59,656 nucleotides of DNA from Candidatus Pacearchaeota archaeon (GCA_018221305.1 JAAOYK010000055.1:1-59656); one strand, 5' to 3'; shown: positions 11,718 through 37,452, counted from the first letter of the stretch. Numbers and translations are program-made. Notes: generated by a model not told the origin, from the letters alone.

Positions 11718-11718
11718 T

Positions 11719-12143: not shown

Positions 12144-12947
12144 TTAAAGTTTCTTAAACCCTTTCCATGCAGCTTCAAACAATTGCTCCATTGCTGCGGT
12201 AAAAAAGTCAGTTGATAACCAGATAGCGATATCATAATTCGGATGAACTTTTTCATCGTCCAAGACCATGAATAATAATTGTTCTGAATCGACGATTGCA
12301 AATCGTGCCCTCATTTTTGGCATTGTTCTTACTTCTGCAACTTTTTCAAGCTCTTCTGCAATCTTTTTATTATCCTCATTTACTTGAGTAGCTATTCTTA
12401 TTTCTACACCGCGCTTTTTTGCTTTTTCTAGGCTTGGAAGTAATGCTTCCATTTTTCTGTTAAGTCCTGGAGCAGTTGTAACGATTGTGATTGTTTTCTC
12501 TGCTTCTCGAATCATCATGTCTAAATGATTGTAAACATTTTGTCTCCCTTTGACACTTCCTGAAAGGTCACTTGGTTCAATAAACTTTATTCCTTGTGTA
12601 AACAAACTGTTTAATTCTTCTAAAATATCTTCACCTTTTAATTTGTCAAGTCGTTTACTTTTATCATCTGCATCACGTTTCAAATTCTTTTTTACTCTTT
12701 CTACGACTTCTTCAGGTTTTAGGGCAACAAACTTTATTGGTTTTCCAAGCTTCATTACAATAAATCCTTTTTTTTCTAATGTTTCAAGAATATCATACGT
12801 CCTACTTCTAGGAACATCACTAATATTAGACAATTCTCCAGCAGTTGAGACACCTCTGGATAACAATGCAGTCCAGACCCTCACCTCGTACAGGTTTAGA
12901 TCGAATATTTTTCTGAGCCTGCTTAAGAACTCTTCTTTAACTATCAT
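12144..12947 (-). CDS. TrmB-family transcriptional regulator
   Basis: N-terminal wHTH LNLYEVRVWTALLSRGVSTAGELSNISDVPRSRTYDILETLEKKGFI, followed by a coiled linker and a C-terminal TrmB-type effector domain. Confidence 0.8.
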   Translation of the reverse strand: MIVKEEFLSRLRKIFDLNLYEVRVWTALLSRGVSTAGELSNISDVPRSRTYDILETLEKKGFIVMKLGKPIKFVALKPEEVVERVKKNLKRDADDKSKRLDKLKGEDILEELNSLFTQGIKFIEPSDLSGSVKGRQNVYNHLDMMIREAEKTITIVTTAPGLNRKMEALLPSLEKAKKRGVEIRIATQVNEDNKKIAEELEKVAEVRTMPKMRARFAIVDSEQLLFMVLDDEKVHPNYDIAIWLSTDFFTAAMEQLFEAAWKGFKKL

Positions 12948-13029
12948 GTTGTTCCCTCTTTATTATCATTAGTAAGATAAACATTGATTACTATTTAAAT
13001 CTTTTTGTTATTTAATAATAGTTATTAAA

Positions 13030-15825: not shown

Positions 15826-15870
15826 CTTGCTTATTTATCCATATTTTCCTTTACTTTTAAACATTTTTAA

Positions 15871-16095
15871 TTATGCACTAAAATATGCAGCCTTTATTTT
15901 CCAACCCTGATCCTGTTTTTCTATATACCTTCGCGCATATTCTGGCAATTTTTCATAAAATTCTCTTGCATCTTTTTTCTCGCGTTTATCAACAAGACTG
16001 AAAAACTTATTCGCAGCATCCTCTAATTCTGCCTTTGTTGGTTCACGTTCATTGTTCGTTTGTATATTAGTCTCTAAACTCATAATAAACTCCAC
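15871..16095 (-). CDS. hypothetical small protein
   Basis: 74-aa ORF. No motif was recognised. Confidence 0.3.
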   Translation of the reverse strand: MEFIMSLETNIQTNNEREPTKAELEDAANKFFSLVDKREKKDAREFYEKLPEYARRYIEKQDQGWKIKAAYFSA

Positions 16096-16222
16096 GCAAA
16101 TCCGAAATATATCAGATTTGCAATCAAATAATAATTATAATACTAGCTATGTTAGAAATTCCAATCTTGCTTAGTTGGTTGTATAGCTGTATTTTCATAG
16201 GATTAATAGCTTTTTTAAGTAT

Positions 16223-17404
16223 TTAAGATTTATGGATTACCTCTAACATAAATCTTATATCATTGTCATTAAATTCTCGTTTAATTTTTTGTCTAACCAT
16301 ATTTGACATTTTAATGATAATGTTTGCTGCAACGGTTTTGTCAATTGTATAGCCTAATTCTTGCGCTTTAGAAATAACTCCGTGATATCCAGAACATGGC
16401 CCCATGATAAGTTCTGACTTTCTTCCAAAATCTTTAGCATTTACAGCTTCATATGAGTTTACATCATTAACTACTGCATGTTGATGTATGCCAGATTTGT
16501 GCGAAAATGCACTTTTTCCTACAATTGGCGCAAAATCGCTTTTTATCCCTGTAGCCCTGCTAACTAGTTTTGCTGCTTCGTACAATTTTGTTGAATCTAT
16601 TTGTGTATCAAAAGTTCTTGGTTTTCTTAATGATAGTGCAATAATTTGTTCTAGGGAGCAGTTCCCTGCACGTTCTCCAATACCCCAAATGGTAGTTTCT
16701 ACTTGCCCTGCACCATTTTGTATAGCATAATATGTATTAGCAGTAGCCATTCCATAATCATTATGGCAATGTGCACTAACCTTTACAGTATCGCTTTCTT
16801 GTTTGACAACTTGTTTAATATTTTTAACAAGTTGCCCAAATTCCTGTGGCATTGCATATCCTACTGTATCTGCAATATTGATAACTTCTGCACCTTCACT
16901 GATTACTGCTTTGCACATTTTCGTCAATGTGGAAAATTTGCTTCTAACAGAATCTTCAGGTGTGAACTCTATTATCTGAAAATATTTTGCTGCATATCTA
17001 ACAGCACTTGCAGCCATTTCAATAAGTTCATCTTCACTTTTCTTTAGTTTTGCATCATTTTGGACGTCTGAGGTTGGAACAAATATGTGAACTATTCTTT
17101 TATCATATTTCTTGAAAGCGTCATATGTTGCATCAATATCTTGTTTTGTAGCTCTTGCAAGTCCGCACAAGTATGGTTTTTTTATCTTGCTTGCAATTTC
17201 TTTCATAACTTCTATATTACCTTTAGATGCTGCAAATCCTGCTTCAATTATGTCAACATTTAACTTTTCAAGCATTTTTGCAATCTCGATTTTTTCATTA
17301 TCATACATCGTACAAAACGGGTTTTGTTCACCATCCCGTAATGTCGTGTCCATAACAGAAATATTGTTTAGTTCTTTTTCAATGCAATTATAATTAGAAA
17401 TCAT
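16223..17404 (-). CDS. 2-isopropylmalate/homocitrate/citramalate synthase family enzyme (HMGL-like, short form)
   Basis: Contains DTTLRDGEQ, HCHNDYGMATANT and GIGERAGN motifs. At 393 aa it lacks the LeuA C-terminal regulatory domain. A GGAGG box lies 10 nt upstream of the ATG. Confidence 0.85.
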   Translation of the reverse strand: MISNYNCIEKELNNISVMDTTLRDGEQNPFCTMYDNEKIEIAKMLEKLNVDIIEAGFAASKGNIEVMKEIASKIKKPYLCGLARATKQDIDATYDAFKKYDKRIVHIFVPTSDVQNDAKLKKSEDELIEMAASAVRYAAKYFQIIEFTPEDSVRSKFSTLTKMCKAVISEGAEVINIADTVGYAMPQEFGQLVKNIKQVVKQESDTVKVSAHCHNDYGMATANTYYAIQNGAGQVETTIWGIGERAGNCSLEQIIALSLRKPRTFDTQIDSTKLYEAAKLVSRATGIKSDFAPIVGKSAFSHKSGIHQHAVVNDVNSYEAVNAKDFGRKSELIMGPCSGYHGVISKAQELGYTIDKTVAANIIIKMSNMVRQKIKREFNDNDIRFMLEVIHKS

Positions 17405-17446
17405 ATGTAAGTTTCCTCCAAGAATTAATCAAAAATTAAGATTTAG

Positions 17447-17520
17447 ATGAAACCCTAAATTAAAATAAGCAGAGCTAATAAAATATTTCCAGTGCTGTTA
17501 TTAGCTCTTGTGGGTTTCAT
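17447..17520 (-). other. 74-nt two-tier stem-loop in the intergenic region upstream of the synthase gene
   Basis: Outer stem ATGAAACCC (17447-17455) pairs with GGGTTTCAT (17512-17520). Inner stem AGAGCTAATAA (17471-17481) pairs with TTATTAGCTCT (17498-17508), with a 16-nt loop. Confidence 0.4.
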
Positions 17521-17577
17521 GAAATAGTTAATTAAGTACTCTTTTTAAATTTATTCAATATACTATATCTCTAAAAT

Positions 17578-18126
17578 TTATGCTTTAATCTGTAATAATT
17601 TGTTTCTTTGATAAAAGTCTTCAATTGTATCTTTTTTCCACCAGATCGTACTTTGTCCATAATCTTTAATTTCTCCAGGAACAATCATATGAGGTAAATG
17701 AAATGCGACAATTCCTGGGTTTATCCTATAACCTTCGGTATCTTTCCACCTAACATGCATTAAATGATCTCCTTTAAACCAAACCCCATTTCTTAAAACT
17801 GCTCGCCTTATAGCAATATCATGGATATGATTATTTTCTGTCTCTTGAATCTCATAATTAAATTTTGATTTAATATTACTTTCTTCAGTGTCATAAATAT
17901 CACTTGCATTATCAATTAACCAGTCTAAAGTACCTGAACAACGTTTAAAAAATTCATAATATCCATCTTCATAAATTTGTAATGCTTCTTTTCTAGGGAT
18001 TATTAAATCTCCCCATTGATAAGCAATACGCCAGTTATTTTCACCAAACTTTTTGTCCCATTGACTAACCACTTCGTCCCTTTTTTTACCTAAATATCCT
18101 GGACGTTCAATAGTCTCCCATTCCAT
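17578..18126 (-). CDS. hypothetical protein
   Basis: 182-aa W/Y-rich soluble ORF. No family was recognised. Confidence 0.4.
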   Translation of the reverse strand: MEWETIERPGYLGKKRDEVVSQWDKKFGENNWRIAYQWGDLIIPRKEALQIYEDGYYEFFKRCSGTLDWLIDNASDIYDTEESNIKSKFNYEIQETENNHIHDIAIRRAVLRNGVWFKGDHLMHVRWKDTEGYRINPGIVAFHLPHMIVPGEIKDYGQSTIWWKKDTIEDFYQRNKLLQIKA

Positions 18127-23832: not shown

Positions 23833-26800
23833 TTAGTCCCATCTCCTTATTTGAACCTCTGTTGACCACTCATACGGTATCCCTTCAAGCCTTGTAGAGG
23901 ATATCTGAAAATTGTCTTGAGTAAACTTAACATCAACTAATCTGTCATCATTAAAATCTAATGAGTTTAATAGGTTAAATGCTGCAATTTTTAATGAATC
24001 GTTTGTTAACGGTGCAAGTGATGAATTACAATAACCATCTCCACATTCACTATGTTTTGCTCCTCCAAAATAACATTTTTCTCCAAGATTATACGAGTCG
24101 GGTATTGGTAGATCATTTTCAGTACTTCCGTCAAAAAATTCTATTGTCCAGTCGCATCCCTCTGCATCATTAGATATTGCAGAGTATGCTTCTAATTTTT
24201 TTATCAGTGTTACTAATATGCTGTTATCTATTGACCCTTCACTATTTTGGTTTGGCTCTAGACCAGTATTCATCCGAACAATGTTTATATTAGCATTTTT
24301 GTTAATCATTGATGTAGGAATGTTTACTGCATAAGGATCTCCTAATTTAAGAAAAAAGTTTTGATATTCTCCAAGATCATAAGCTGTTTCGTACGGATTA
24401 CCATTATCTCTAATAAATACTTCGTTAGTCCAAAACGGGCCTGAATATGATATAACTTTTGCATCCAAAATTTTAAAATCTTTAGGCACAGTAAAATTTC
24501 CATGACGCGTGTCATTAAATGGCCAGTTTTGAGTCACAACAAGTCCTGCATTTCTATCTCTTAGATAATCAAACTCAATGTATGAATCAGGATCTAAGTA
24601 TGAATAAAATTGTCCAACAATTTCTAATGTCTGTTTTCGATATGTTGCATTCATTATATCATTTGCTATTTGCGCATAAAGCGCTTCAAGACCTCCCACA
24701 TTTCCAATATAATCAATACCATTCCCGCAAGTTGGTTCAACCATTTGTTCGAGTGTAATCTTTGCGCTTGCAGGTGCATTAAACGCTACTGTATATACTT
24801 TGATCCCGTATTTTTGATATGCCCTGCATGCAGCTGCAACAGCATAATCCGCAGGAAAATTTATACCAGCGATATCTGGAACATATCCCATTTCAGCACA
24901 CGGTTGAGTCGCCGAACCATCAGTCATAACAACCATAAATTTATCTCTGCCTTCTGATTCACATGTAGAAGAGCATCCGTCCCCATTTATTATATTACCG
25001 TCGTCACATTCTTCAGTACTATTTTTATAATCATCTCCACAAGTTTCTGAAAAATAGCATGCATTAAATGTTCCTGCAGCAGTGCATGAATGATAACCTT
25101 CATTTTCTAAAGCATCATAACACGTAACTCTATCTCCGTCACAAACTTCTCCTACTTCTACAATACCGTTATCACCACCTGCTGACTGATCATAAAGACC
25201 GCTTATTTCTGCAGGTGTTAATGTTTTGTCATAAAGTCTTACTTCATCAATAAATCCTTCAAAAAAGTCTGTTGGTGTATAATCAAAATCATCATCATAA
25301 TCTTGCCCAATAGTAAAATTTGTGTCAGGGCTTACAACTGTAAATCCTGCAGGTCCATCTATATCTGAAGTCCTTCCAGTAAGGTTATGTGTATAAACAT
25401 CTACATCATCAATATACATTTTAATAAATCTTGCATCAAAATCATAAGTCATAACAATATGATGCCAATTAGAATCTCTTATTGAAATAGCAGTGTCATA
25501 ATATTTATTATCCGTCTTAAGGTTTAAGTTATTAGTAACATCTCTAATCATTGCTCTGATGTCGTAAAACTCATCACTATTTTCATCCCACATCTTTATA
25601 TGATCTTGATAAAATGCAAATAATGTATCTTTATCAGAACCTGCATCACTTTTTGCCCAAAGTGATACTGAAAAATCATTATTACTTATATCCCCATTTT
25701 TTGTTATATATTTTGTAAAAAAGTCTGCTACAATATAATCATCACCACTCATTTTTAATGAATTACCTTCAATAACGTCAACAAGATCCGCAGAATATTC
25801 TTCTGTTCCTTTAAAGATTCCATCATTTCCTAAAGGACCTTTATCATCTGTAGTATTATCATCAAAGTCATAATAAGCAACCAACCCTGTAGATTTTGGT
25901 TGTACAAATTCCCAAACAGCCCTGTTTACTCCAGAACAAATATTTGTTCTTCCAACATCTCTCCAAGGAGAAACTTCTGCTTTTAATGATGTCTTATCAT
26001 CTGATAATTCATGATATTCTGTGTTACTTACATAAGATCCATAACCATTAACTCCTACTCTATTATTTCCAATTGCAGGATTCGTATCATTTAACATTAC
26101 ATCAATCAATCTTTTTGTCGCTCTTATTGATTCTGACATCTTAGAATTATAATCAGTCGCACTTCCCATACTTCCTGATAAATCATTAACCGAAACAACG
26201 TCAATATCTGCTTCAACTTGTGTAATTAATGATGAAGCATTTTTTATGCCTAACCTTACTGGAACAGTTGTTCGCGAAATTTTAGAATAATTAATTTGTG
26301 CATCAAAAGCAGCATCTGTTATTTTTTTAGTTACAAGACCTACAGCTTTTGTAGTAATATCTGTTGTGTTCCCTAGTTCAAACGTTTTGTTACCAATTGC
26401 CAAAAATATGTCAAGACTACTATTAAACCTGATACTTGCGTTCATTTTGTTTATTTGTCCAGGGATATAAAATCCATCATAAACATTTAAAAATCCTTCA
26501 ATCCCAGGAAAATAATATTTTTTTGGTTGTTCATACTCGTCTAATGGGTCATAAATAATCTTTAGATATCCTCCAGCAATATGCAACTTTTCTGTAGCAC
26601 TATGCAGCTTCACATAATCAACAGATTTACCAAACTGATCTAACCTGTTGTTTGGAATAGTGCATGTGCTAGGTGTAAAGTCATTTACTGCTGCACTACA
26701 TGAAATCATTTTTCCAGGGTTCACTGGCGGGTTTATTGAAACTTTAAAATTATAAGGTATTGTGTGCACTATTTCTGCGCTTTGTATTGTACCATTAAAA

Positions 26801-27351
26801 TCTACTCTAAGAGTTAAATCACCTTCACCAACATAACCGCCAAAATAAAAATGTTTTGTTCTGTTAAGCGCGCTCAAAAATGCTCGCGCAGAATATCCAG
26901 TTATTCCTTTATCACTTATCCCACTAATAACATGACGTTCTACATCAATATTTTTTGCAGCTGCTAAAGAAAACGGCGTATTATTATTTTTTGCAGCAAC
27001 ACATTTATTGTCATACCAAATCCCAATTTTTTCTTTTGTCTTTAACTGATTTAATGTTATATTAGCAAGCTCTACTGCCTTTTCTCTGTCTCCTTGAGAA
27101 ATAAAAATTCCAATTTGTTCAATTATTGTTTTGGATCCATCAGTAACATCACCATCATTTATCCACTGAGTAACTGTTGCGTTATTAATTTCTCCAATTT
27201 TTAAAGTTGTTAAAACTCTTATCAAATCTCCTTGAATCTCAGACCTTTTCTGTGAAGATTTTACAATTGGGAACGCAACCGTTAAAACAATAATTATTAT
27301 TGATAATGCGATTAACGCATCCATACTAAAAAATGCACCTCTTTTTTTCAT
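23833..27351 (-). CDS. giant pilin-like adhesin: class III signal peptide + vWA domain interrupted by LamG(Laminin_G_3)-like and Cys-rich-repeat modules
   Basis: The N-terminus is MKKRG|AFFSMDALIALSIIIIVLTVAF. The MIDAS motif is DLSGS (aa 390-394), with VVMTDGSA at aa 807-814. The LamG_3 signature is FSVSLWAKSD...NWHHIVMTYD...FEGFIDEVRLYDKTLTPAEISGLY. The Cys repeat is ETCGDDYKNSTEECDDGNIINGDGCSSTC. It is collinear with the paralog at 27356..29818 apart from a ~320-aa insertion. Confidence 0.8.
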   Translation of the reverse strand: MKKRGAFFSMDALIALSIIIIVLTVAFPIVKSSQKRSEIQGDLIRVLTTLKIGEINNATVTQWINDGDVTDGSKTIIEQIGIFISQGDREKAVELANITLNQLKTKEKIGIWYDNKCVAAKNNNTPFSLAAAKNIDVERHVISGISDKGITGYSARAFLSALNRTKHFYFGGYVGEGDLTLRVDFNGTIQSAEIVHTIPYNFKVSINPPVNPGKMISCSAAVNDFTPSTCTIPNNRLDQFGKSVDYVKLHSATEKLHIAGGYLKIIYDPLDEYEQPKKYYFPGIEGFLNVYDGFYIPGQINKMNASIRFNSSLDIFLAIGNKTFELGNTTDITTKAVGLVTKKITDAAFDAQINYSKISRTTVPVRLGIKNASSLITQVEADIDVVSVNDLSGSMGSATDYNSKMSESIRATKRLIDVMLNDTNPAIGNNRVGVNGYGSYVSNTEYHELSDDKTSLKAEVSPWRDVGRTNICSGVNRAVWEFVQPKSTGLVAYYDFDDNTTDDKGPLGNDGIFKGTEEYSADLVDVIEGNSLKMSGDDYIVADFFTKYITKNGDISNNDFSVSLWAKSDAGSDKDTLFAFYQDHIKMWDENSDEFYDIRAMIRDVTNNLNLKTDNKYYDTAISIRDSNWHHIVMTYDFDARFIKMYIDDVDVYTHNLTGRTSDIDGPAGFTVVSPDTNFTIGQDYDDDFDYTPTDFFEGFIDEVRLYDKTLTPAEISGLYDQSAGGDNGIVEVGEVCDGDRVTCYDALENEGYHSCTAAGTFNACYFSETCGDDYKNSTEECDDGNIINGDGCSSTCESEGRDKFMVVMTDGSATQPCAEMGYVPDIAGINFPADYAVAAACRAYQKYGIKVYTVAFNAPASAKITLEQMVEPTCGNGIDYIGNVGGLEALYAQIANDIMNATYRKQTLEIVGQFYSYLDPDSYIEFDYLRDRNAGLVVTQNWPFNDTRHGNFTVPKDFKILDAKVISYSGPFWTNEVFIRDNGNPYETAYDLGEYQNFFLKLGDPYAVNIPTSMINKNANINIVRMNTGLEPNQNSEGSIDNSILVTLIKKLEAYSAISNDAEGCDWTIEFFDGSTENDLPIPDSYNLGEKCYFGGAKHSECGDGYCNSSLAPLTNDSLKIAAFNLLNSLDFNDDRLVDVKFTQDNFQISSTRLEGIPYEWSTEVQIRRWD

Positions 27352-27355
27352 TTGT

Positions 27356-29818
27356 TTACCTCCACGTTCTTATTTGTACCTCTGTTGACCAACTATAGGG
27401 AATCCCCATAATCTCATTAGATCCAATATCAAAATTTTGATCAGTGAACATTACATCTAATAGCCCATCATTATCAAAATCTAATAACTTTAATAATCTA
27501 TATGTTGCAATCTGAACAGCATCATTACTATTTTCACAATTACTACCGTCACAGTTCATGCCTCCAAACGTATTATTTCCATAATTACAATTTATTCCGC
27601 CAGAATAATTTAATGGTATTGCTAAACTTTGGTTTGATCCGTCATTAAAATATAATGTCCAGTCACAACCTTGCGAGACTGGGGAAAGTTTTGAGTAAGC
27701 AATCAGGTTTGTTGAGATTGTATATATTACTTTGTTGTTTATTGATCCTGGTGAATGGTTTCCTGGATAAAGTCCTGTCGTAAGGTTGATAGTGTTTGGG
27801 CTTGCTAGTGAAACTAAATATGTAGGAATATTAACAACATATGGGTCTCCAAGTTTTATATATTCGTCTCCATACTCTTCCAAATCATATATTGTATTAT
27901 TATTCATAGTTAATCTGTTTGTCCAACGCGGACCAGAGTATGATATAACTTGCGTGTTGATAACTGTAGAGTTTGGAGGTATCTGAAACGTTGCTGTGTA
28001 TGGGTCATCAAAAGGTTCTTCAATTGTAGCAATTAATCCTGTATAAGTATCTCTGTCATACCCAAACTCAATGTACGAATCCTCTGTAAGGTTTGTTCGG
28101 TAACTTCCAGACTGTACGATTATTGTTTGTTTTTTGTATGCCAAATTTATTATATCTTCTGCAACTTTTTCATAAATACTTACTAAATCATCAATATCAC
28201 TTTCATAATAAGTTCCATTCCCGCAAGCCGCAATAGGTATCAGGTTTGCAGTCTCAACTATCTTTCCAAAACCTACAACATTTATCATTATTTCATGATT
28301 ATTCCATGCATCACATGCAGCATCTATTGCGTCCTGTACACCGTCAGCAGTGCTACATCCTTGGTTTGCTTTCCCACTACCCATAACAACTACTGACCTA
28401 AAATTATTAGGATCTGACTGCGCCAAAAGATAATTTACTCCTGCTTCTATGCCGCAACATAAACAATCATTTTCACCAAGATTTGTGTCAACCCAGCTTT
28501 CATCTAGTTTGTCATACAATGTAGATTTAGTATTAGTTAATTCTAGATAATTTTGTGGGTATACTGCCGTTTTATATCCCACAAGCCCTACGTTTGTTGT
28601 TGATTCGTTTAATAACATGTCAATAAGTCTTTTATTTGCATGATATGACTGATTGATAAGTGTTGTGCTGTACCCTGCCCCAAGATTTTTGTTCATTTCT
28701 CCTGAAAGGCTTGAGACAGAATAAACATCAGCTTCAACATTTCCTCCTAAGACATAAGAAGCGTTTAATATACCAAAACGCAACGGAACTGTTTTTCTAC
28801 TTAAATCACTATAATCAAGCAAAGAATCAAGTATTGAATCATCTATGACAATGTTTTCCATCCCACTTGTGTTTCCTTGATAAACTGTAACATTTCCTAT
28901 TGTTAAAAAAGTAGATACTTCACTATCAAAGTTCAAATTAATGTCCATTGTGTTTAGTGTACCTGGGATATAAAAACTATCATAAAGGTTCATAATACCT
29001 TCAACCCCTGGAAAATAATATCTTTCAGGTTCTTCATATTCAATAGCACTATCATAAGTAACTTTTATGAAACCTCCTGCAATGTGTAAGCTTTCGTCCA
29101 AAATTTCTATAATGTTTACACCTGAATTAAAATCAGTTATAGGAAGTGTATATGTTCTTGGCGTAAAGTCATCAACAGACTTTTCATAAGCTCCAGCAAA
29201 GTTTGAGTTAACATACACACTAAAATTTTTATCAATTGCAAGCTCCATTGTTGCACTACTAATATTTCCGTTGTATTCAATACGCGCGCTTAAATTTCCT
29301 TCACCAACATATCCTCCAAAATAAAAATATTTTGTTTGCATTGTATTTTTTAAAAATGCTCGTGCAGAATATCCTGTTAAAGAGCTTCCATTACTAATAC
29401 CTGAAACTGTCTGACGTTCTACCCCTACTTGGACAGCGTCACTGTATGGTGTGTTATTCATTGATGCAAGAAGCGTGTTTCCATACCAAATCCCTATATT
29501 TTCTGTAGTGTTTAAGTTTGATAATATTGCTGTTGCAAGTCCTTGTGCTAACGTAATATTTGTAACATAAAATTCTCCAATTTGTTCTAATATGTTTTTG
29601 TTATAATCAGTGATTTTTCCTTGAGCTTTTAGATTATCAACATAAGCATTATCAATCTCTCCGATCTTTAAAGAAGATAAAACCCCTTGAAAATCTCCAC
29701 TAATGTCAGAATCTTGGTTGGAAAATTGAATAATTGGTATTGTAAATCCTACAACTATTAAAATTATTATAAGTGCTACTAATGCGTCGAAGCTAAAATA
29801 TGCTGCTCTTTTTTTCAT
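27356..29818 (-). CDS. giant pilin-like protein: class III signal peptide + vWA-like domain with degenerate MIDAS
   Basis: The N-terminus is MKKRA|AYFSFDALVALIIILIVV. It aligns end to end with 23833..27351 (for example GYSARAFL, YFYFGGYVGEG, LHIAGG, YYFPG.EG, ISYSGP.WTN, KLGDPY.VNIPT, QGCDWT, GIPY.WSTEVQIR). The MIDAS position reads SLSGE instead of DLSGS. A DFDNDGLLD Ca-binding-like loop lies near the C-terminus. Confidence 0.75.
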   Translation of the reverse strand: MKKRAAYFSFDALVALIIILIVVGFTIPIIQFSNQDSDISGDFQGVLSSLKIGEIDNAYVDNLKAQGKITDYNKNILEQIGEFYVTNITLAQGLATAILSNLNTTENIGIWYGNTLLASMNNTPYSDAVQVGVERQTVSGISNGSSLTGYSARAFLKNTMQTKYFYFGGYVGEGNLSARIEYNGNISSATMELAIDKNFSVYVNSNFAGAYEKSVDDFTPRTYTLPITDFNSGVNIIEILDESLHIAGGFIKVTYDSAIEYEEPERYYFPGVEGIMNLYDSFYIPGTLNTMDINLNFDSEVSTFLTIGNVTVYQGNTSGMENIVIDDSILDSLLDYSDLSRKTVPLRFGILNASYVLGGNVEADVYSVSSLSGEMNKNLGAGYSTTLINQSYHANKRLIDMLLNESTTNVGLVGYKTAVYPQNYLELTNTKSTLYDKLDESWVDTNLGENDCLCCGIEAGVNYLLAQSDPNNFRSVVVMGSGKANQGCSTADGVQDAIDAACDAWNNHEIMINVVGFGKIVETANLIPIAACGNGTYYESDIDDLVSIYEKVAEDIINLAYKKQTIIVQSGSYRTNLTEDSYIEFGYDRDTYTGLIATIEEPFDDPYTATFQIPPNSTVINTQVISYSGPRWTNRLTMNNNTIYDLEEYGDEYIKLGDPYVVNIPTYLVSLASPNTINLTTGLYPGNHSPGSINNKVIYTISTNLIAYSKLSPVSQGCDWTLYFNDGSNQSLAIPLNYSGGINCNYGNNTFGGMNCDGSNCENSNDAVQIATYRLLKLLDFDNDGLLDVMFTDQNFDIGSNEIMGIPYSWSTEVQIRTWR

Positions 29819-29888: not shown

Positions 29889-30434
29889 TTATTCTTCCCA
29901 AATGTAAAGATAAGCCGTAATCGGTTTATTTTTATATATTGTAAACCGTGTGATTTTCACCAGGTTTTTTGCATTAGAATAAACATCTTTTCCGATGACA
30001 GGGTTTGTAGCAGGATTATTATCTCCATCTAGATTCATATCTTCTTCTAAAAAAAATCTGTACTCATAACGTGTATTAAAAACCTTTTTTGTAAATGTAT
30101 AATTGCCATTACCATCACTATTATCACTTAAGTCCCAAAACGCTTGAAGCTTTTTGTCATCAATCTTGTTTGACGAGTTTAAAATTCCAATTTTCATTAT
30201 ATTGTTATGATCAGCAGTAGCTAATGGTACCAATGTCTCCCAATTTGTAGGATAACCTTCAGACATTAAAGAGTCCATTACAAGTTTTCCATTATGATAT
30301 AAGTATTCAAACTTTTCCTTAGTATCTCCTGGACTGTTTAATGTGTAGATAAAGAAAAGCATTATGCCAAACGTGAACAATGTTACAGCTACCATTAAAT
30401 CTATGCCCCATGTTTGTGCTTTTTTATTTTTCAT
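29889..30434 (-). CDS. pilin-like protein (class III signal peptide)
   Basis: MKNKKA|QTWGIDLMVAVTLFTFGIMLFFIY. Confidence 0.55.
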   Translation of the reverse strand: MKNKKAQTWGIDLMVAVTLFTFGIMLFFIYTLNSPGDTKEKFEYLYHNGKLVMDSLMSEGYPTNWETLVPLATADHNNIMKIGILNSSNKIDDKKLQAFWDLSDNSDGNGNYTFTKKVFNTRYEYRFFLEEDMNLDGDNNPATNPVIGKDVYSNAKNLVKITRFTIYKNKPITAYLYIWEE

Positions 30435-30446: not shown

Positions 30447-30878
30447 TTAAGGTACTAATGTAATAGATATTACTTCCCCTGTTTTGCTTATCTTGTTTTT
30501 ATCAGGGTTTGTGTTTAGTGTAAAAGGGTTTGTAGCAACATTAACTTCTGCTATAGGTAACATTAGTGAATGAGCATTATCTGTTGTTTTTACATAAACA
30601 GCATTATCAGAAATTTGTACATCATACGTTTTACCATCAATTCTTGCAGGAAGCGTAAACTCACGTTCATATCCATTTGCAGCTTTTACTGCCAAGGAAA
30701 TCTCGTTTTGTACTTCTAGTGCCACTTCATTAGTTAACAAGTCCCGTTTTTCATTTATTCTATCAAAGTTAACTTCATATATTGTGACAACCAAAATAGT
30801 AAAGAAAAAAAACACTGCACCAAAAACTATTATGAACTCAATACCTACTTGTGCTTTTTTTTTGTTTTTTTTTATCAT
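30447..30878 (-). CDS. archaeal pilin, DUF361/EppA-substrate-like (Q at +1, E at +5)
   Basis: MIKKNKKKA|QVGIEFIIVFGAVFFFFTILVV. There is a 4-nt ATGA overlap with the upstream pilin gene. Confidence 0.65.
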   Translation of the reverse strand: MIKKNKKKAQVGIEFIIVFGAVFFFFTILVVTIYEVNFDRINEKRDLLTNEVALEVQNEISLAVKAANGYEREFTLPARIDGKTYDVQISDNAVYVKTTDNAHSLMLPIAEVNVATNPFTLNTNPDKNKISKTGEVISITLVP

Positions 30879-31318
30879 CCTTGACTAATAACTGCATGAC
30901 TTGCGTCTGCTTCGATAATTATCATTTTCACACCAGATGCTATTGTTATTGGATTTGAACTATCTATCATAATAGGTACATCAGATTTAAAAGATAACTT
31001 TTGCTCTCCTGAAGATGCTGTAATATTAATCAATAGATAATATAATCCATTATAATACACAGCATCTATACCACTAATCCCTTCTGGAAGGAATGGGTAA
31101 ATTGTAGCTTTTGATGGCTCTCCTGCATAAAATACTGTCCTAGAAGCGCCGACTACTTTATTTCCAAAATTATGTATTTGTGTTTCTTTTAATTGATCAC
31201 CTGAGGTTGTGCTATAATAAAGTCCAATACCAAGAATGCCAGTTATAATAATTGTTAAAAATCCTACAAGTATTAAATACTCCATACTTACCTGCGCTTT
31301 ACTAGAAATGTTTTTCAC
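30875..31318 (-). CDS. archaeal pilin, DUF361/EppA-substrate-like (Q at +1, E at +5)
   Basis: MKNISSKA|QVSMEYLILVGFLTIIITGILGI. This is the first gene of the operon. Confidence 0.65.
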   Translation of the reverse strand: MKNISSKAQVSMEYLILVGFLTIIITGILGIGLYYSTTSGDQLKETQIHNFGNKVVGASRTVFYAGEPSKATIYPFLPEGISGIDAVYYNGLYYLLINITASSGEQKLSFKSDVPIMIDSSNPITIASGVKMIIIEADASHAVISQG

Positions 31319-31443
31319 TTTTTCCTTCTACCTCTTTTTATAAATGAGTTATGTTTTGTTGATTAATAAACTTATTGTTAAGTTTAAAAACAATACATTT
31401 ATAAAATTAATAATATATATCATAATAATTATAATACTATACA
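31319..31443. promoter_or_regulatory. divergent promoter region of the pilus locus
   Basis: A 125-nt very AT-rich spacer between divergent operons. TTTATAAA boxes lie at 31337-31344 (19-26 nt from the minus-strand ATG) and 31398-31406 (38-46 nt from the plus-strand ATG). Confidence 0.5.
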
Positions 31444-32361
31444 ATGGCAAAAGAGGTGATAAAAGTAGTAACTATTGGGAGCTTAGCATTTCTAGGATTA
31501 ATTTTTGTTAACACTATCCTTTTGTTTTTAGGTCATGAAAGTTCTCCTGGGATTACTGGTAATTCTGTTGCTGACAGTTTAAAAGAGGTTTATACAGAAA
31601 TGTCACTAGCGTCAAAGATTTTCTTGTTAGTACAGTTCATTGCATTATTAATAATTTTTATTTATTTTATTATTAAAGCAAGAAAATCTATTAAAGAACG
31701 TGACGAAATTGCTCATTTAAATGTTGTAAAAAATCCTGGAGGATCAAAGACTGATATTGACACGTTATATGAAATTTTAAAAGATAGAAAACAAATAAAC
31801 ATTCCATCAGTTGGTAAAGCTTTTCGTGTTAGTAAAGAGTTAGCAATGGAATGGTGTCGTATTTTAGAAAATAATGATTTAGCAACAATTGATTATCCTG
31901 GTTTTATTGGAGATCCTTCAGTAAAACTTGCTGTACCAGAATCAGAAAAAAGTAAAGACAAAAAAGATAAAGATAAAGACAAAAAATCAGACGATAAAAA
32001 GGACGATAAAAAGGATGATAAAAAAGATGATAAAAAAGATGAGAAAAAGATAGATAAAAAAGATGTGGACGAGAAAAAGGATGATAAAAAGCCTGACCAA
32101 GATAAAACTAATGTAGAAAAACCTACTGAAACTGCTGCCCAAAAACCAAAAAAACGTTTTAATATATTTAAAAAGAAAAAGCCATTAGACACTTCAGTAC
32201 CTGTAGCACAAAATGTAGGGGTTACAGACAAAGATAAAAAATGGGTAAGTGAGGCAATAAAAAAAGGATTAAATGAAAAAGATGTTAGTAAATTATTGCA
32301 AGGGTTAGAAAAAAGTAAAAGAGAACAAATTGTTAATTATTATAAATCTGTTTCAAAATAA
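31444..32361 (+). CDS. pilus-locus membrane protein: 2 TM + globular segment + poly-(K/D) linker + C-terminal ~40-aa helical module
   Basis: The TM segments are VVTIGSLAFLGLIFVNTILLFLG and IFLLVQFIALLIIFIYFII. A KDDKK-type low-complexity tract covers aa 169-218. The C-terminal WVSEAIKKGLNEKDVSKLLQGLEKSKREQIVNYY is shared with the N-terminus of 35932..37005. Confidence 0.6.
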   Translation: MAKEVIKVVTIGSLAFLGLIFVNTILLFLGHESSPGITGNSVADSLKEVYTEMSLASKIFLLVQFIALLIIFIYFIIKARKSIKERDEIAHLNVVKNPGGSKTDIDTLYEILKDRKQINIPSVGKAFRVSKELAMEWCRILENNDLATIDYPGFIGDPSVKLAVPESEKSKDKKDKDKDKKSDDKKDDKKDDKKDDKKDEKKIDKKDVDEKKDDKKPDQDKTNVEKPTETAAQKPKKRFNIFKKKKPLDTSVPVAQNVGVTDKDKKWVSEAIKKGLNEKDVSKLLQGLEKSKREQIVNYYKSVSK

Positions 32362-32392
32362 AATTAAGTTTTTTTAAAAAAAAGACAAAAAC

Positions 32393-34069
32393 ATGGCAAG
32401 AAAAAAAGTAATAAAGAAAAAAAATATAAAAAGAAAAGTTATCAAACGTAAAACTGCAAACGTAGTAAGGACAAAAGTTCGAGCCTCTAGGCCGGTTGTA
32501 CCAAAAAGACTTCCAAGCACATCAAACCCTATGCAGTCAGCAATTAAAGGTCATGTGTCTCAAAAGCCTGAAAAAAGACGTCCAGAAGTTCTTGAAAGAT
32601 ATTTTATTGAGGCAGAAAAATCTAAAATAAAGATTGAGATCCAGAGAAGAGGTACAACAACGACTTATGTTGTCGAGGCACCAAAAATTAATGAAGCTAC
32701 AGCAGCCCTTCTTGATGAGGTTAGGGATGAATTAGTTACTGCAACATCTGTTGGAATGAACGAAATCATGGACTCTGGAGCTATTAAAAATATGAAGAAA
32801 CGTTTTGGTATTGAGGCAGGAACTTTAATAGCAAAAAAATTGCCTCATATTAATAAAGATACTCAAAGTATCCTGGTTAACAAATTAATGCAAGACATGC
32901 TTGGTCTAGGCGAGATTGAATTTTTAATAAATGATCCTCATTTAGAAGAAATAGTTATTCCTTCATCAAAAGAAACAATACGCACGTATCATAAAAAGTA
33001 TGGCTGGCTTCCAACAAATCTTCGCATTGCTCGTGAAGATGAAATTGTTAATTATTCAAACATTATAGCGCGTCGTGTTGGACGACAAATTACAGTGCTT
33101 ACACCATTGCTTGACGCTCATTTAGTATCAGGTGATAGAGTAAATGCTATACTTTACCCAATAAGTAGTAAAGGTAACACTATAACTATCAGAAAGTTTG
33201 CACGTGACCCTTTTACAGTAATAGACCTTATAACAACAAAAACTTGCAGTGTTGAAGTTACTGTACTTTTATGGCTTGCTATTGAGTATGAGATGAATGT
33301 TTTAATTTCAGGAGGTACAGCGTCAGGTAAAACCTCACTACTTAACGCATGCATTCCTTTTATTCCTCCAAATCATAGAATTATTAGTGTAGAAGATACC
33401 CGTGAATTAATGCTTCCTGAATTTTTATACTGGACACCTCTTGTTACACGTACTCCTAATCCTGAAGGTAAAGGGGAAGTTTCAATGTTGCATTTATTAG
33501 TAAACTCACTGCGAATGCGTCCAGACCGTATAGTTTTAGGTGAAATGCGGCGTAAAGAAGAAGCAATGGTTTTATTTGAAGCAATGCATACAGGACACTC
33601 AGTGTATGCTACTCTTCATGCAAACACTGTTGCAGAAACGTTGTCGCGTCTTACAAACCCTCCACTAAGTGTTCCTGCAAACTTATTGTCAGCAGTTAAT
33701 CTAAACGTTGTAATGTTTAGAGATAGGAGACGAGGGATACGGCGTGTCTATCAAGTAGGTGAATTTAATGTAAGCAATGACCGGGCAGAAGCAAACATTT
33801 TATATCGATGGAGTCCTGAAGAAGACAAAATATTAAAACATACAGATAACATGCGAGTCTTTGAAGATATTGGTAGAAATACTGGAATGGGTCGCGCACA
33901 GATTAATAGAAATTTGGAAGAAAAAAAGTTTATTATTAACTGGATGATAAAAAATAAGTTCAGATCTTTAGAAGATTTTGGTAAAGTCATGCAACAGTAT
34001 TATGGTGACAAAGAATTTTTAATAAAAAATATTAGGGCTAATAATAGTAAAGCAATAATTGGGAGATAG
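32393..34069 (+). CDS. type IV pilus/archaellum assembly ATPase (ArlI/FlaI-PilB-VirB11 family) with polybasic N-terminal extension
   Basis: Walker A is SGGTASGKTSLLNA. Asp/Glu boxes include IISVEDTRELMLP. Walker B is RPDRIVLGEMRRKEEA, and the His box is HTGHSVYATLHAN. The N-terminal ~65 aa are Lys/Arg-rich (MARKKVIKKKNIKRKVIKRK...). Confidence 0.85.
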   Translation: MARKKVIKKKNIKRKVIKRKTANVVRTKVRASRPVVPKRLPSTSNPMQSAIKGHVSQKPEKRRPEVLERYFIEAEKSKIKIEIQRRGTTTTYVVEAPKINEATAALLDEVRDELVTATSVGMNEIMDSGAIKNMKKRFGIEAGTLIAKKLPHINKDTQSILVNKLMQDMLGLGEIEFLINDPHLEEIVIPSSKETIRTYHKKYGWLPTNLRIAREDEIVNYSNIIARRVGRQITVLTPLLDAHLVSGDRVNAILYPISSKGNTITIRKFARDPFTVIDLITTKTCSVEVTVLLWLAIEYEMNVLISGGTASGKTSLLNACIPFIPPNHRIISVEDTRELMLPEFLYWTPLVTRTPNPEGKGEVSMLHLLVNSLRMRPDRIVLGEMRRKEEAMVLFEAMHTGHSVYATLHANTVAETLSRLTNPPLSVPANLLSAVNLNVVMFRDRRRGIRRVYQVGEFNVSNDRAEANILYRWSPEEDKILKHTDNMRVFEDIGRNTGMGRAQINRNLEEKKFIINWMIKNKFRSLEDFGKVMQQYYGDKEFLIKNIRANNSKAIIGR

Positions 34070-34075
34070 ATTTTT

Positions 34076-34960
34076 ATGAAATTTAGAATTCCATTTACTT
34101 TTTCGGACATTGATAAGTTGAAGCGAAGGTCTTCATTTATTTCTCAAAGGATTAAAAGGAAAAAAAATTCAAAACTTAAAGAAGAACTTGAAAGTGCTGG
34201 TATTGATATAACACGTGAAGAATATATAGGTGTTTGTCTTAGAAATTTGATTATAATTTTTATTTTCACTTTTGTTGTTGCTACTTCATTTTTCGCAGTA
34301 GCAAACCAGAAAATTTTTTACATCTTAGGCCCAGGAGTAGCCTTAGTAATCTCTTCTTTTTTATTTTTTATGCAGATAATGTTTCCAAAACTTTATATTA
34401 CAAAAAAACAAAAAGATATTGAACGTAACTTGCTTTATGCATTAGAAGACATTTTGATTCAATTAAACTCTGGTGTACCTCTTTTTGACATTTTGAGAAA
34501 TATTTCATATGCAAACTATGGAGTTTTAAGTGACGAATTTAAAAAAGCAGTACATCGTATAAATTCAGGCGAGCCAGAAGTTGCGGTTCTGGCAGATATT
34601 GGAAAACGTAACCCGTCTGTCTTTTTAAAACGTACATTATGGCAAATAAGTAATGGTCTTAATGCAGGAAGTGACATGTCTTTAATTGTTCGGGACAGTA
34701 TAAAAACTTTAAATGAAGAACAATTGATTCAGATCCAAAGTTATGGTAACAAATTAAATCCATTAATAATGTTTTATATGTTGTTATCAGTCATTGTCCC
34801 TTCTTTATCTGTAACTTTTTTAACAATTTTGGCATCAATGGCTGGCATGAATAAGCAGATAACGATAGGTGCTTTTGCAGGACTTTTTTGTTTTGTAGTC
34901 TTGTTTCAAATAATGTTTTTAGGTCTTATTAAATCACGTCGTCCAAGTTTGTTAAGTTGA
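34076..34960 (+). CDS. pilus platform membrane protein, single T2SSF domain (TadB/TadC-like half of ArlJ/PilC)
   Basis: The cytoplasmic helical T2SSF-like segment (LLYALEDILIQLNSGVPLFDILRNIS...SDEFKKAVHRINSGEPEVAVLADIGKRNPS) is flanked by TM helices. Confidence 0.75.
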   Translation: MKFRIPFTFSDIDKLKRRSSFISQRIKRKKNSKLKEELESAGIDITREEYIGVCLRNLIIIFIFTFVVATSFFAVANQKIFYILGPGVALVISSFLFFMQIMFPKLYITKKQKDIERNLLYALEDILIQLNSGVPLFDILRNISYANYGVLSDEFKKAVHRINSGEPEVAVLADIGKRNPSVFLKRTLWQISNGLNAGSDMSLIVRDSIKTLNEEQLIQIQSYGNKLNPLIMFYMLLSVIVPSLSVTFLTILASMAGMNKQITIGAFAGLFCFVVLFQIMFLGLIKSRRPSLLS

Positions 34961-35886
34961 AAAAAATGAATTATAGAAAAAAAATATCACGTCTTACAGA
35001 AAAGGAAAAGAAAACATTAAGACGTAGACGTCTGTCTACAATTATTTTAGCTATCTTAACAAGCTTTGTTTTGTTTGCAATCTATAGGACTCCTTTAATA
35101 CCAATCATTGGCTTTTTTAGTGCAATTGTTATAATCTTTTTATTTTTTCATTTTAGTGACGGTTTTAAAAAATCTGGACGTATTAATAAGATGGAAACAG
35201 TTTTTCCAGACTTTTTACAGTTAGTGTCGAGCAACCTTCGGGCTGGAATGACTGTTGATAAATCAATAATGCTTGCCGCACGTCCAGAGTTTGCACCTTT
35301 AGACGAAGAAATTATACAGACAGGTAAAGATATAACAACTGGCAAAAATATTGAACGAGCATTAAAAGATTTGTCATATCGTATAGGTTCTGATAAGATC
35401 GGAAAAACAATTTTAATAATCATTTCAGGTATTAGGGCAGGAGGAGACATTGCAGTACTTTTAGATGAAACAGCTGGTAACATGCGTTCACGAGAATTTG
35501 TAGCAAAACGTGCAGCATCACAGGTCTTAATGTATGTAATTTTTGTATTTTTTGCTGTAGCTGTCTTTGCACCAGGCTTGTTTGCTTTGTCAAATGTTTT
35601 AGTTTTTACAATGGATAATCTGATAGGAGACATTGATACAAGCGCTGTTCAAGGATCCAGTTATATATCTTTTCAAAAGATTAGTGTTTCTTTAGACTTT
35701 ATACTATATTATTCAATAATTTTTATAGTATGTATTGATATTTTAGCATCATTAGTTATTGGCTTGGTTAATAAAGGTGAAGAACGTGAAGGTCTCAAAC
35801 TTCTTCCTTTTATGATAGGACTAAGTCTTGGATTATTTTTTCTGTTAAAGATTGTAATATCCAATATAATGGGAAAACTAATTTAG
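34957..35886 (+). CDS. pilus platform membrane protein, single T2SSF domain (second half)
   Basis: FPDFLQLVSSNLRAGMTVDKSIMLAARPEFAPLDEEIIQTGKDITTGKNIERALKDLSYRIGS is flanked by TM helices. The track uses a TTG start at 34957, which overlaps the upstream stop. The first ATG is at 34966. Confidence 0.75.
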   Translation: MKKMNYRKKISRLTEKEKKTLRRRRLSTIILAILTSFVLFAIYRTPLIPIIGFFSAIVIIFLFFHFSDGFKKSGRINKMETVFPDFLQLVSSNLRAGMTVDKSIMLAARPEFAPLDEEIIQTGKDITTGKNIERALKDLSYRIGSDKIGKTILIIISGIRAGGDIAVLLDETAGNMRSREFVAKRAASQVLMYVIFVFFAVAVFAPGLFALSNVLVFTMDNLIGDIDTSAVQGSSYISFQKISVSLDFILYYSIIFIVCIDILASLVIGLVNKGEEREGLKLLPFMIGLSLGLFFLLKIVISNIMGKLI

Positions 35887-35931
35887 TATTAACAAAACAC
35901 TTTTATACTCTAAATTTTTTTAATAAACATA

Positions 35932-37005
35932 ATGGCTCGAAAAAAAGTTGTAAAAAAGAAATCTAAAAAGAGAACATTAAAAAAACGTCCAACCAAAAAA
36001 AGAGTTGCAAAACCAAAAGTTGATACTTTTGGGCTTGATAATGAAAGTCTTTCTTGGGTAAAACAATCAATAGATAAAGGTTTTGAACGCGCGCAAGTTG
36101 AAAAATTATTAAAAGACGTTGACGCAAGCCAAAAACAAAAAATGCTTTCATATTATGATGCTTTAAATAAGATCCCTGACAGTAGCGAATCTTCTATGCA
36201 AGAGACAGTTAGTGCTTCAGAACCAGTCGCAGAAAAAAAATCTGCTCCGATTAGTAGTTATGAACCAGAAATCAAGCCAACAAAAGCTCGCGGTCATAAA
36301 GTTCCAAGCGGAATTTTAGGTCTTGACAAGTTAACTCATGGAGGATTTGAAAACCATTCAACAAACCTTTTGGTCGGAGGAAGTGGTACTGGGAAATCAA
36401 TATTTTCTATTCAGTTCTTGGTTGAAGGCGTTAGAAAGGGTGACAGATGTTTATATATTACTTTTGAAGAACGTAAAGGAGAATTTTATACTAATATGAA
36501 AGAACTTGGCTGGGATCTTGCAAAAATGGAGAAAAATAATAAATTTTATTTTTTGTCTTACACTCCTGAAAAAGTAAAAACAATGCTTGAGGAGGGCGGC
36601 GGAGAAATTGAAAGTATGGTATTAACAAATAAAATCAACCGTATTGTAATTGATAGTATTAATGCATTTATCATGATGTTTGATAATGACCTGCAACGTC
36701 GTGAAGCGTCTTTAAAACTATTTTCTCTGCTTAGAAACTGGAACAGTACTTCAGTTTTAATCTATGAACGTGACCCTTTGGTTGACAAAAGATCTTCTTC
36801 CAGAGTGCTCGAGTTTGAATCAGACTCACTCATCTTTCTGTACTTTGTTCGCTTAAGGCGTCAACGAGAACACTTTATGGAAGTTTTTAAAATGAGAGGC
36901 TCAAATCATTCAAAAGAGATCCATCCTTATGTTATTACTAAGGGTGGTATAAAGGTTACAACAGCCCCTTACGCAGGAAATCTTGACAAGTTTAGGACTG
37001 TGTAA
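35932..37005 (+). CDS. KaiC/ArlH(FlaH)-like RecA-superfamily ATPase with polybasic N-terminus and ~40-aa helical module
   Basis: Contains SGILGLDKLTHGGFENHSTNLLVGGSGTGKS (Walker A) and RIVIDSI (Walker B), with a KaiC-like single-domain length (~230 aa). The N-terminus MARKKVVKKKSKKRTLKKRPTKKR precedes WVKQSIDKGFERAQVEKLLKDVDASQKQKMLSYY. Confidence 0.8.
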   Translation: MARKKVVKKKSKKRTLKKRPTKKRVAKPKVDTFGLDNESLSWVKQSIDKGFERAQVEKLLKDVDASQKQKMLSYYDALNKIPDSSESSMQETVSASEPVAEKKSAPISSYEPEIKPTKARGHKVPSGILGLDKLTHGGFENHSTNLLVGGSGTGKSIFSIQFLVEGVRKGDRCLYITFEERKGEFYTNMKELGWDLAKMEKNNKFYFLSYTPEKVKTMLEEGGGEIESMVLTNKINRIVIDSINAFIMMFDNDLQRREASLKLFSLLRNWNSTSVLIYERDPLVDKRSSSRVLEFESDSLIFLYFVRLRRQREHFMEVFKMRGSNHSKEIHPYVITKGGIKVTTAPYAGNLDKFRTV

Positions 37006-37041
37006 ATAATACTTAAAGTTTTAAAAAAATTCTTTTTACTT

Positions 37042-37236
37042 TTATTTTTTCTTAGCAGACCTATACTTTTTCCATTCATATATTGCAAACAATATTGAAA
37101 GAATACCAATAATGATCCAGCTCACTGAATTTATACTAAACTCTTTAGTTATTATGGACAGTATTCCTACTATTACTATAATTATCCCTGCAATAAGTCC
37201 TGCTATTGCATTAATAAAATAAATTGCTTTTCCCAT
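37042..37236 (-). CDS. small 2-TM membrane protein
   Basis: 64-aa ORF with two hydrophobic helices and a basic tail. Confidence 0.4.
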   Translation of the reverse strand: MGKAIYFINAIAGLIAGIIIVIVGILSIITKEFSINSVSWIIIGILSILFAIYEWKKYRSAKKK

Positions 37237-37239
37237 TTA

Positions 37240-37452
37240 CTAAACCTCCTTTTTTTGAGTTAAACCTTTTTTAATTTTTACTGCTTGAATAATTTCTTTA
37301 ATAGCTATCACTGCGCCTATTGCTGCTCCAATAAATATGATAACAGCAAAAGGCATATTGCCATCATTAAGAAACTTGATCCCATAGTAAATAATTCCTA
37401 TGACAAAAAGAATTCCTACAATTCCCCATATCAGTTTTTTTGTATTTATCAT
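37240..37452 (-). CDS. small 2-TM membrane protein
   Basis: 70-aa ORF with two hydrophobic helices. It sits in tandem with 37042..37236, separated by 3 nt. Confidence 0.4.
   Translation of the reverse strand: MINTKKLIWGIVGILFVIGIIYYGIKFLNDGNMPFAVIIFIGAAIGAVIAIKEIIQAVKIKKGLTQKKEV

Follow-up and report, generated by a model that had tools for sequence, protein, structure and literature searches.

Why should the first and the last gene product of an archaeal pilus operon carry the same small domain? The question is raised by a stretch of 59,656 nucleotides (nt) from Candidatus Pacearchaeota archaeon (GCA_018221305.1 JAAOYK010000055.1), which we call the window; by this we mean the whole stretch, and all coordinates are counted from its first letter. 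Its operon begins with a membrane protein that has two transmembrane (TM) helices and ends with a KaiC/ArlH-like ATPase. A sequence-only reading of the window had claimed that a segment at the C-terminus of the former aligns without gaps to one near the N-terminus of the latter, with about 12 of 39 positions identical. The two segments are:

32242-32358, + strand: module copy 1, residues 267-305 (the last 39) of the membrane protein, WVSEAIKKGLNEKDVSKLLQGLEKSKREQIVNYYKSVSK; predicted three-helix bundle
36055-36171, + strand: module copy 2, residues 42-80 of the KaiC-like ATPase of 357 amino acids (aa; open reading frame (ORF) 35932-37005), WVKQSIDKGFERAQVEKLLKDVDASQKQKMLSYYDALNK; predicted three-helix bundle

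Both coordinate ranges translate exactly to the segments originally quoted, and copy 1 is followed directly by the stop codon of its ORF (31444-32361, 305 aa). The gap-free alignment was also correct, with 13 identities out of 39 by our count and a BLOSUM62 score of 84. Composition-preserving shuffles scored -23 on average (standard deviation 13, giving z = 8.1), and none of 200,000 reached 84; a lack of significance against composition-matched shuffles had been named as one way in which the claim could fail. The Smith-Waterman score of the whole proteins (108) was likewise higher than that of all 300 global and all 300 block-wise shuffles, and BLASTP of the membrane protein against the KaiC-like protein gave E = 2e-6. 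The two segments are paralogous copies of one small domain of ~40 residues. At the DNA level the copies are 57% identical, mostly at second codon positions, which indicates that the protein segment was duplicated long ago and that the copies are no DNA repeat. No third copy was found when the six-frame translation of the window was searched with a two-sequence hidden Markov model (HMM).

The proteins that carry the two copies are built as follows:

31444-32361, + strand: two-TM membrane protein, first gene of the operon, 305 aa, no Pfam or NCBIfam match
31729-31929, + strand: helical domain of the membrane protein (residues 96-162), conserved, looks winged-helix-like
31930-32241, + strand: poly-K/D linker of the membrane protein (residues 163-266), followed by the module
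35932-37005, + strand: KaiC/ArlH-like ATPase of the RecA superfamily, last gene of the operon, 357 aa, single-domain
35932-36021, + strand: basic tail of the KaiC-like ATPase, followed by the module (parts of this protein from ORF and Pfam)
36172-36297, + strand: S/E/P-rich linker of the KaiC-like ATPase
36298-37002, + strand: KaiC domain of the KaiC-like ATPase

From hydropathy, the TM helices of the membrane protein lie at about residues 11-29 and 59-77. Both ends of the protein are presumably cytoplasmic, and all module copies are predicted to be so. AlphaFold2 (AF2) run on a six-sequence alignment of the module gave a three-helix bundle (helices 2-12, 17-23, and 29-43) with a predicted local distance difference test (pLDDT) score of 90.7. 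In the model of the full-length membrane protein, residues 262-304 have pLDDT >90, while the linker of ~115 residues in front of them (143-260) has pLDDT ~35 and is probably disordered. In the KaiC-like protein the module sits between a K/R-rich tail of 30 residues and an S/E/P-rich linker of ~42 residues. The ORFs and the predicted linker thus bear out that two proteins encoded in one operon carry the module terminally, and the low pLDDT in the membrane protein agrees with the flexible, charged linker that had been described beside each copy. On these models, the module is predicted to be a conserved three-helix unit that folds autonomously. Most modules are net basic. In the sequence, runs of neighboring hydrophobic positions that are conserved (WV, LL, YY) may form an exposed patch for binding.

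No named domain had been recognized in the module from the sequence, and we likewise obtained no significant match in Pfam, NCBIfam or PDB. Profile searches against PDB sequences returned chance-level matches only, and Foldseek against the PDB found no significant neighbor (best E = 3.4; RxLR effector, FimV TPR, and COMMD HN, all E >3). Isolated modules gave scattered, sub-threshold Pfam matches to UBA_3, COMMD8_HN, HTH_MCM7, RecX, and RuvA_C, which we rejected as evidence of membership. The same applies to a match of the KaiC-like protein to Arch_fla_DE (E = 0.072, overlapping the linker) that was not reproduced with isolated modules. UBA-like three-helix bundles of ~40 residues do resemble the module in size and in their helix-turn-helix-loop-helix layout, and the K-G-[FLY] conserved in its first turn is reminiscent of the M-G-[FY] loop in UBA. 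Membership is nevertheless unsupported, as UBA_3 matched only 2 of 18 module members (E ~0.008, below significance), no UBA structure was among the Foldseek matches in the PDB, and no PDB sequence matched the module. Within the family itself, which we call type 1, the pattern is W[VA]xxA[IV]xKG[FLY]...LL...YY, and 5 protein architectures match the HMM, with per-domain E values of 1e-10 to 1e-17.

Absence of the module from orthologous loci had been the other way in which the claim could fail; it is present in the closest ones. Among the 120 closest homologs of the KaiC-like ATPase the module is carried by only two (three by another count), and the two are the closest ones (P0002 and P0003, with core identities of 69 and 62%); many others have a K-rich N-terminal tail only, without the module. 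P0002 is encoded in a Woesearchaeota metagenome-assembled genome (locus L001) with the same gene order as the window. The membrane protein of this locus, P0121 (5295-6458), has two module copies with an ER/K-rich helix between them. The contigs with P0003 (L003) and with the membrane-protein ortholog P0123 (L006, one C-terminal module copy) abut inside the ArlI-like ATPase gene and therefore represent one locus. In all three lineages of the closest clade (the window; L001/L002/L012; L006 with L003) the membrane protein thus has 1-2 copies of the module, and the KaiC-like ATPase has it too.

The linkers of the three lineages differ fully in length and composition and cannot be aligned. As the module is conserved all the same, selection acts on the module and not on the tail. 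The linkers of P0121, P0002, and P0003 contain long ER/K-rich stretches such as QKETQEREIRRQKQEQERQVKIQEQEAERAKIAEQAKREEAMRELEK, which by eye look like single alpha-helix spacers, while the window has the poly-K/D tract instead. Opposite this tract lie two antisense ORFs of 112 aa (31893-32231, - strand) and 51 aa (31987-32142, - strand) with F/L/S repeats, almost certainly artefacts of the low-complexity coding sequence.

The KaiC-type copies group together (19-23 of 39 residues identical) and have the signature KGF...M[IL]SYY. Since this signature is conserved, the duplication predates the split of the three lineages. Membrane-type copies share KGL and are 11-16/39 identical across lineages, about the same as when compared with the KaiC type. 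Both proteins are without the module in the sister loci L007, L008, and L009 and in ~70 more distant loci. In a neighbor-joining tree of the ArlI-like cores the module-bearing loci of the window type form one clade, from which it follows that the co-occurrence on two proteins is a single evolutionary event.

How far does the module extend beyond this clade? A profile of the narrow window subtype was searched exhaustively with HMMER against 1.84 billion representative proteins and gave nine matches at E<=1e-3, of which about five are genuine (P0121, P0001, P0003, P0122, and P0123), so the window subtype is very rare. The matches P0124-P0127 are repeat proteins with partial matches, P0124 on a short contig, and were treated as spurious or uncertain. 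When metagenomes were scanned with the membrane protein's helical domain, 80 loci with the same operon were recovered; among these, the window subtype of type 1 occurs only in the window, L001/L002/L004/L011, L012, and L006/L003. Other searches added little: a word-indexed search with the whole membrane protein was swamped by the poly-K/D tract and gave one ortholog only, the same kind of search with a six-sequence module alignment gave no matches because the query was too short for the word index, and a scan of a genome collection with the N-terminal domain returned only the contig already known.

Carriers of the module also occur outside pilus loci; whether matches would be confined to such loci was a check that the sequence-only reading had proposed. 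A contig of 63 kb (L005; JGI 3300031653, Ga0315550_1000058), whose JGI sample also yielded L002, encodes two paralogous module-bearing membrane proteins at 10001-17798 which are not pilus proteins, namely P0122 (455 aa) and a NosD/beta-helix protein of 2110 aa. In each, a GPYY motif at the cytoplasmic N-terminus is followed by a TM helix, a Cys-rich region outside the cell, another TM helix, and a tail in the cytoplasm that ends in two module copies. Their genes are flanked by a gene for a DisA-type diadenylate cyclase (DAC with DisA-linker) and by a DHH/DHHA1 gene. Both paralogs begin with the conserved motif MVYK..I.R.G.V.GPYY..SYRD..GKV.

Seven loci of this operon family, which belong to a distant clade (L051, L063, L065, L071, L072, L076, and L080), have a homologous subtype at the N-terminus of the ArlI-like ATPase, behind its basic tail. 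The pattern of this subtype is W[VI]xxAIxKGY[ST]xxxLRxxLLKxxYxxxQILKxLSxYEK, and hhalign relates it to the window subtype with 96.8% probability and E = 3e-10. An internal repeat pattern, KGY[ST].../..GY.., is visible in this subtype.

A second type of small helical module, of ~43 residues, has the pattern ..YLKKY...Y.L..LK.KII.SGY[ST]......AL and no Pfam match. It is located on the membrane protein (at the N-terminus in L016 and L048/L049, at the C-terminus in L027/L028), at the N-terminus of the ArlI-like ATPase (L019), and at the N-terminus of the second T2SSF protein (L016, L078, L082, and L089/L090). L016 thus has it on two proteins of one operon. Between types 1 and 2 hhalign gave 52% for a match of 20 columns only, in a shifted register. 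Taken together, every component of the operon family that is predicted to face the cytoplasm carries a homologous or similar module in some lineage.

What might such a module do? A role as a tethered protein-protein docking module, acting through a common hub or by module-module association, is the reading that we favor, with odds a little better than even. It fits the anatomy of the module and the fusion of homologous or similar modules to various cytoplasm-facing components. One module lies behind a long linker at the presumably cytoplasmic C-terminus of the first-gene membrane protein, and the other, also tethered, lies near the N-terminus of the last-gene KaiC/ArlH-like ATPase. Modules on such linkers would work like fishing line and hold the soluble ATPase and the membrane-protein tail at high local concentration on the cytoplasmic side of the pilus base. 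This concentration might come about through one common site on the machine, through a hub protein, or through association of the modules with each other.

Several points weigh against a docking role. It is from architecture and distribution that we infer it, and the fold offers no functional hint, given that no significant structural neighbor was found. The non-pilus carriers in L005 mean that the role is not pilus-specific. No obvious charge complementarity exists between the membrane-type and the KaiC-type modules. The joint gain by two proteins, being a single event on the tree, does not count as independent statistical evidence. Finally, the complete loci L051, L065, and L072 have the homologous module on one component only, so a module pair within the operon is not required.

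A narrower version of the docking reading is a strict heterotypic pair, in which the module at the end of the membrane protein and the one near the start of the KaiC-like ATPase would bind each other directly and serve no other purpose, much like the docking domains of modular synthases. Both proteins gained the module and kept it together in one clade, the KaiC-type copies retain a signature of their own across three lineages (KGF versus the membrane-type KGL), and one copy is C-terminal in the first gene product, the other N-terminal in the last, all of which would suit such a pair. It does not account for the single homologous modules on the ArlI-like ATPase in complete loci or for the tandem copies within P0121 and on the two non-pilus membrane proteins, and both the absent charge complementarity and the single origin of the co-gain count against it. 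We regard a strict pair as unlikely. The lone modules on the ArlI-like ATPase argue against an obligatory pairing of the membrane protein with the KaiC-like ATPase, and slightly favor, as far as these sequences go, a common partner or generic module-module association; the single-copy loci and non-pilus carriers are compatible with either of these.

A broader version of the docking reading, to which we give little credence, is that the module serves as an address tag of a lineage-specific cytoplasmic network. The pilus base (the membrane protein and the KaiC-like regulator here, or the ArlI-like motor in other clades) and the cytoplasmic tails of giant adhesin-like surface proteins would then be gathered on one hub, and multivalent tandem copies on long linkers would build up a clustered attachment organelle. 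Such a hub could lie at the host-attachment site of episymbiotic DPANN cells and, given the DAC and DHH/DHHA1 neighbors in L005, could respond to cyclic di-AMP (c-di-AMP).

The module could also be a nucleic-acid-binding tri-helical unit of helix-turn-helix (HTH) type that acts together with the K/R-rich tails, for instance in pilus-linked DNA uptake, with the KaiC-like ATPase acting on nucleic acid. The three-helix fold, the net basic charge of most modules, and the very basic tails adjoining them are in line with this, as are weak, non-significant Pfam matches to HTH_Tnp_Tc3_2 (0.002), RecX_HTH2 (0.017), and HTH_MCM7. Such HTH-type matches are, however, neither significant nor consistent across members, and many orthologs keep the basic tail without the module. 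Neither the tails of giant surface proteins nor the position of the window copy behind the acidic/basic poly-K/D linker offers an obvious rationale for DNA binding, and we consider this function improbable.

A sensor of a small ligand, in which the module binds a second messenger such as c-di-AMP and regulates the pilus machine and surface proteins, would be a functional analog of the c-di-GMP receptor MshEN/T2SSE_N that is tethered to the bacterial PilB/MshE ATPases. The location of the L005 module genes between DisA-type diadenylate cyclase and DHH/DHHA1 genes points in this direction, and the homologous subtype in other clades is N-terminal to a secretion ATPase, as is MshEN. The DAC/DHH association is seen in one locus only, though, and the window ORFs scanned include neither a DAC nor a DHH gene. 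No T2SSE_N (MshEN) match was obtained in any protein or module scanned, nor a match to any known nucleotide-binding motif; by eye, the spacing of the tandem 24-residue MshEN motif RLGxx[LVI][LVI]xxG[LVI][LVI]xxxxLxxxLxxQ differs as well. As a three-helix bundle of 39 residues also leaves little room for a pocket, a sensor function appears highly improbable. That nothing but a chance similarity of two lysine-rich, low-complexity tails is involved, as two K-rich proteins and short segments might suggest, is refuted for practical purposes by the shuffles (z = 8.1, none of 200,000 as good), the confident AF2 fold, and orthologue conservation at E = 1e-12 to 1e-38.

A docking module at the base of a pilus would have parallels in known systems. 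In the crenarchaeal archaellum ArlX binds ArlH and ArlI and holds both at the motor, and in the type II secretion system GspL tethers the GspE ATPase at the membrane. The tethering that we propose at the pilus base would be analogous. Like the ArlX-ArlH-ArlI scaffold, the window encodes a membrane-anchored protein together with a single-domain KaiC-like ATPase and a FlaI-type ATPase, but no sequence relationship of the membrane protein to ArlX was detected, and the duplicated terminal module on long linkers sets the window proposal apart from the archaellum. Among bacterial secretion ATPases, the N1 domain of GspE binds GspL and MshEN/T2SSE_N binds c-di-GMP. Both are small helical domains that a flexible linker joins to a type IV filament ATPase, and they dock the enzyme to a membrane partner or sense a signal; the ArlI-N-terminal subtype (L051, L065, L072, and others) occupies the same position. 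They differ in having no sequence match to the module, which in the window is carried not by the secretion ATPase but by the membrane protein and the KaiC-like ATPase. A conceptual analogy is offered by the terminal docking domains of modular polyketide and non-ribosomal peptide synthases. There, one protein ends and another begins with a short helical module, both proteins come from one gene cluster, and the modules specify their association; these domains are unrelated by sequence, and the window modules are instead homologous to each other and occur in single and tandem copies too.

Archaeal type IV pilus loci with an associated KaiC-family ATPase are known (Makarova, Koonin and Albers, 2016; PMC4858521). 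The loci described there have the same components as the window operon and its surroundings, namely a VirB11/FlaI-type ATPase, a TadC/FlaJ-type platform, pilins with class III signal peptides (in the window, pilin-like proteins with sub-threshold matches), a VWA protein, and a KaiC-family ATPase, while the passages of that paper found by keyword make no mention of a first gene with two TM helices and a helical domain or of a shared three-helix module. The operon type is thus already known, and so are accessory domains on tethers in type IV filament systems, among which we place the module. Pfam, NCBIfam, and PDB contain no description of the module, of the second module type or of the first-gene family, and a limited literature search found none either. 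They amount to two new small domain families and an uncharacterized conserved first gene of a widespread DPANN pilus operon, and adding these families to domain databases could improve the annotation of "dark matter" proteins.

Almost nothing is known about the cell biology of DPANN archaea, whose pili and giant surface proteins are believed to attach them to host cells. A portable domain that occurs on different pilus components across lineages and on the tails of giant surface proteins therefore gives a concrete handle on assembly, localization or regulation. It also gives one on the role of pilus-associated KaiC-like ATPases, for which Makarova et al. (2016) could give predictions only.

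The window itself is an archaeal chromosome fragment with 32% GC that includes housekeeping genes such as ArgRS, a class I aminoacyl-tRNA synthetase, a TrmB regulator, POR, and D-Tyr-tRNA deacylase. The nearest relatives of its proteins are named Candidatus Woesearchaeota, Pacearchaeota or Nanoarchaeota, which are DPANN lineages. The operon has the genes by which an archaeal pilus operon is recognized (a T2SSE secretion ATPase, T2SSF platform proteins, and a KaiC-family ATPase) and belongs to the type IV pilus system of a DPANN archaeon (Woesearchaeota/Pacearchaeota-like). Its intergenic gaps on the + strand are 31, 6, -4, and 45 nt, and between the first and the last gene lie:

32393-34069, + strand: ArlI/FlaI-like secretion ATPase, 558 aa, T2SSE (PF00437) E = 5.5e-35
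34076-34960 and 34957-35886, + strand: two ArlJ/TadC-like platform genes (T2SSF), PF00482 E = 3e-14 and 7e-14

The helical domain of the first gene product is kept in ~80 metagenomic loci, in each of which the gene immediately precedes that for the ArlI-like ATPase. In this domain T103, D106, F127, A134, W137, E142, and Y151 are invariant, and AF2 with a shallow alignment of three sequences returned a helix pattern of low confidence. In the window the ArlI-like ATPase has a K/R-rich N-terminal tail without a module and scores 292 bits with the NCBIfam FlaI model, below the equivalog cutoff of 550. The platform genes gave weak NCBIfam matches to ArlJ; the platform is split into two T2SSF genes with a 4-nt overlap, and the same split is seen in all related loci examined. 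The KaiC-like ATPase matches Pfam KaiC (PF06745) over residues 124-344 with E = 6.5e-55, and a Walker A (GGSGTGKS) and an FEE motif are visible in its sequence. Its best NCBIfam model is KaiC_arch_3 (159 bits); both this score and that for the archaellum ArlH equivalog (53 bits, cutoff 215) are below the cutoffs. No Pfam match to archaellin, ArlF/ArlG, ArlX or ArlCDE was obtained in the neighboring genes scanned, apart from the weak one to Arch_fla_DE (E = 0.072).

The ArlI-like (32393-32455) and KaiC-like (35932-35994) ATPases start with nearly identical basic tails, MARKKVIKKKNIKRKVIKRKT and MARKKVVKKKSKKRTLKKRPT, which share 14 of 21 residues. None of 100,000 composition-preserving shuffles matched this, and the upstream DNA is dissimilar (15/40). 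The basic tail is a second element common to proteins of the operon. Orthologous ArlI-like, KaiC-like, and membrane proteins without the module commonly have K/R-rich tails as well.

The operon (window 30800-37300) is present at at least 99% identity in sediment run X1 ("metagenomic RNA-Seq"), in low-depth, fragmented contigs that include both flanks. The sediment of this public run is probably the environment from which the window comes, and the run is unusable as evidence of operon expression. Transcribed divergently from the operon are the following genes:

30875-31318, 30447-30878, and 29889-30434, - strand: pilin-like proteins with weak Class_IIIsignal and DUF7266 matches
27356-29818, - strand: VWA-domain protein, 820 aa, VWA E = 1e-7

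The Class_IIIsignal matches score 19.6 and 13.5 bits against a gathering score of 23.7, and the DUF7266 match 26.6 against 27.6; the N-termini of the pilin-like proteins, such as KAQVSMEYLILVGF, look typical by eye. We take the divergent pilin-like and VWA genes to define the locus as a type IV filament system, and the same order of these genes and the operon is found in the orthologous loci L001, L008, and L009. Two very large proteins adjoin the pilin genes (window 23833-29818, - strand). One is the VWA-domain protein of 820 aa, which has a pilin-like N-terminus, and the other has 1171 aa and a Laminin_G_3/ConA-like domain; both may be pilus-associated adhesins.

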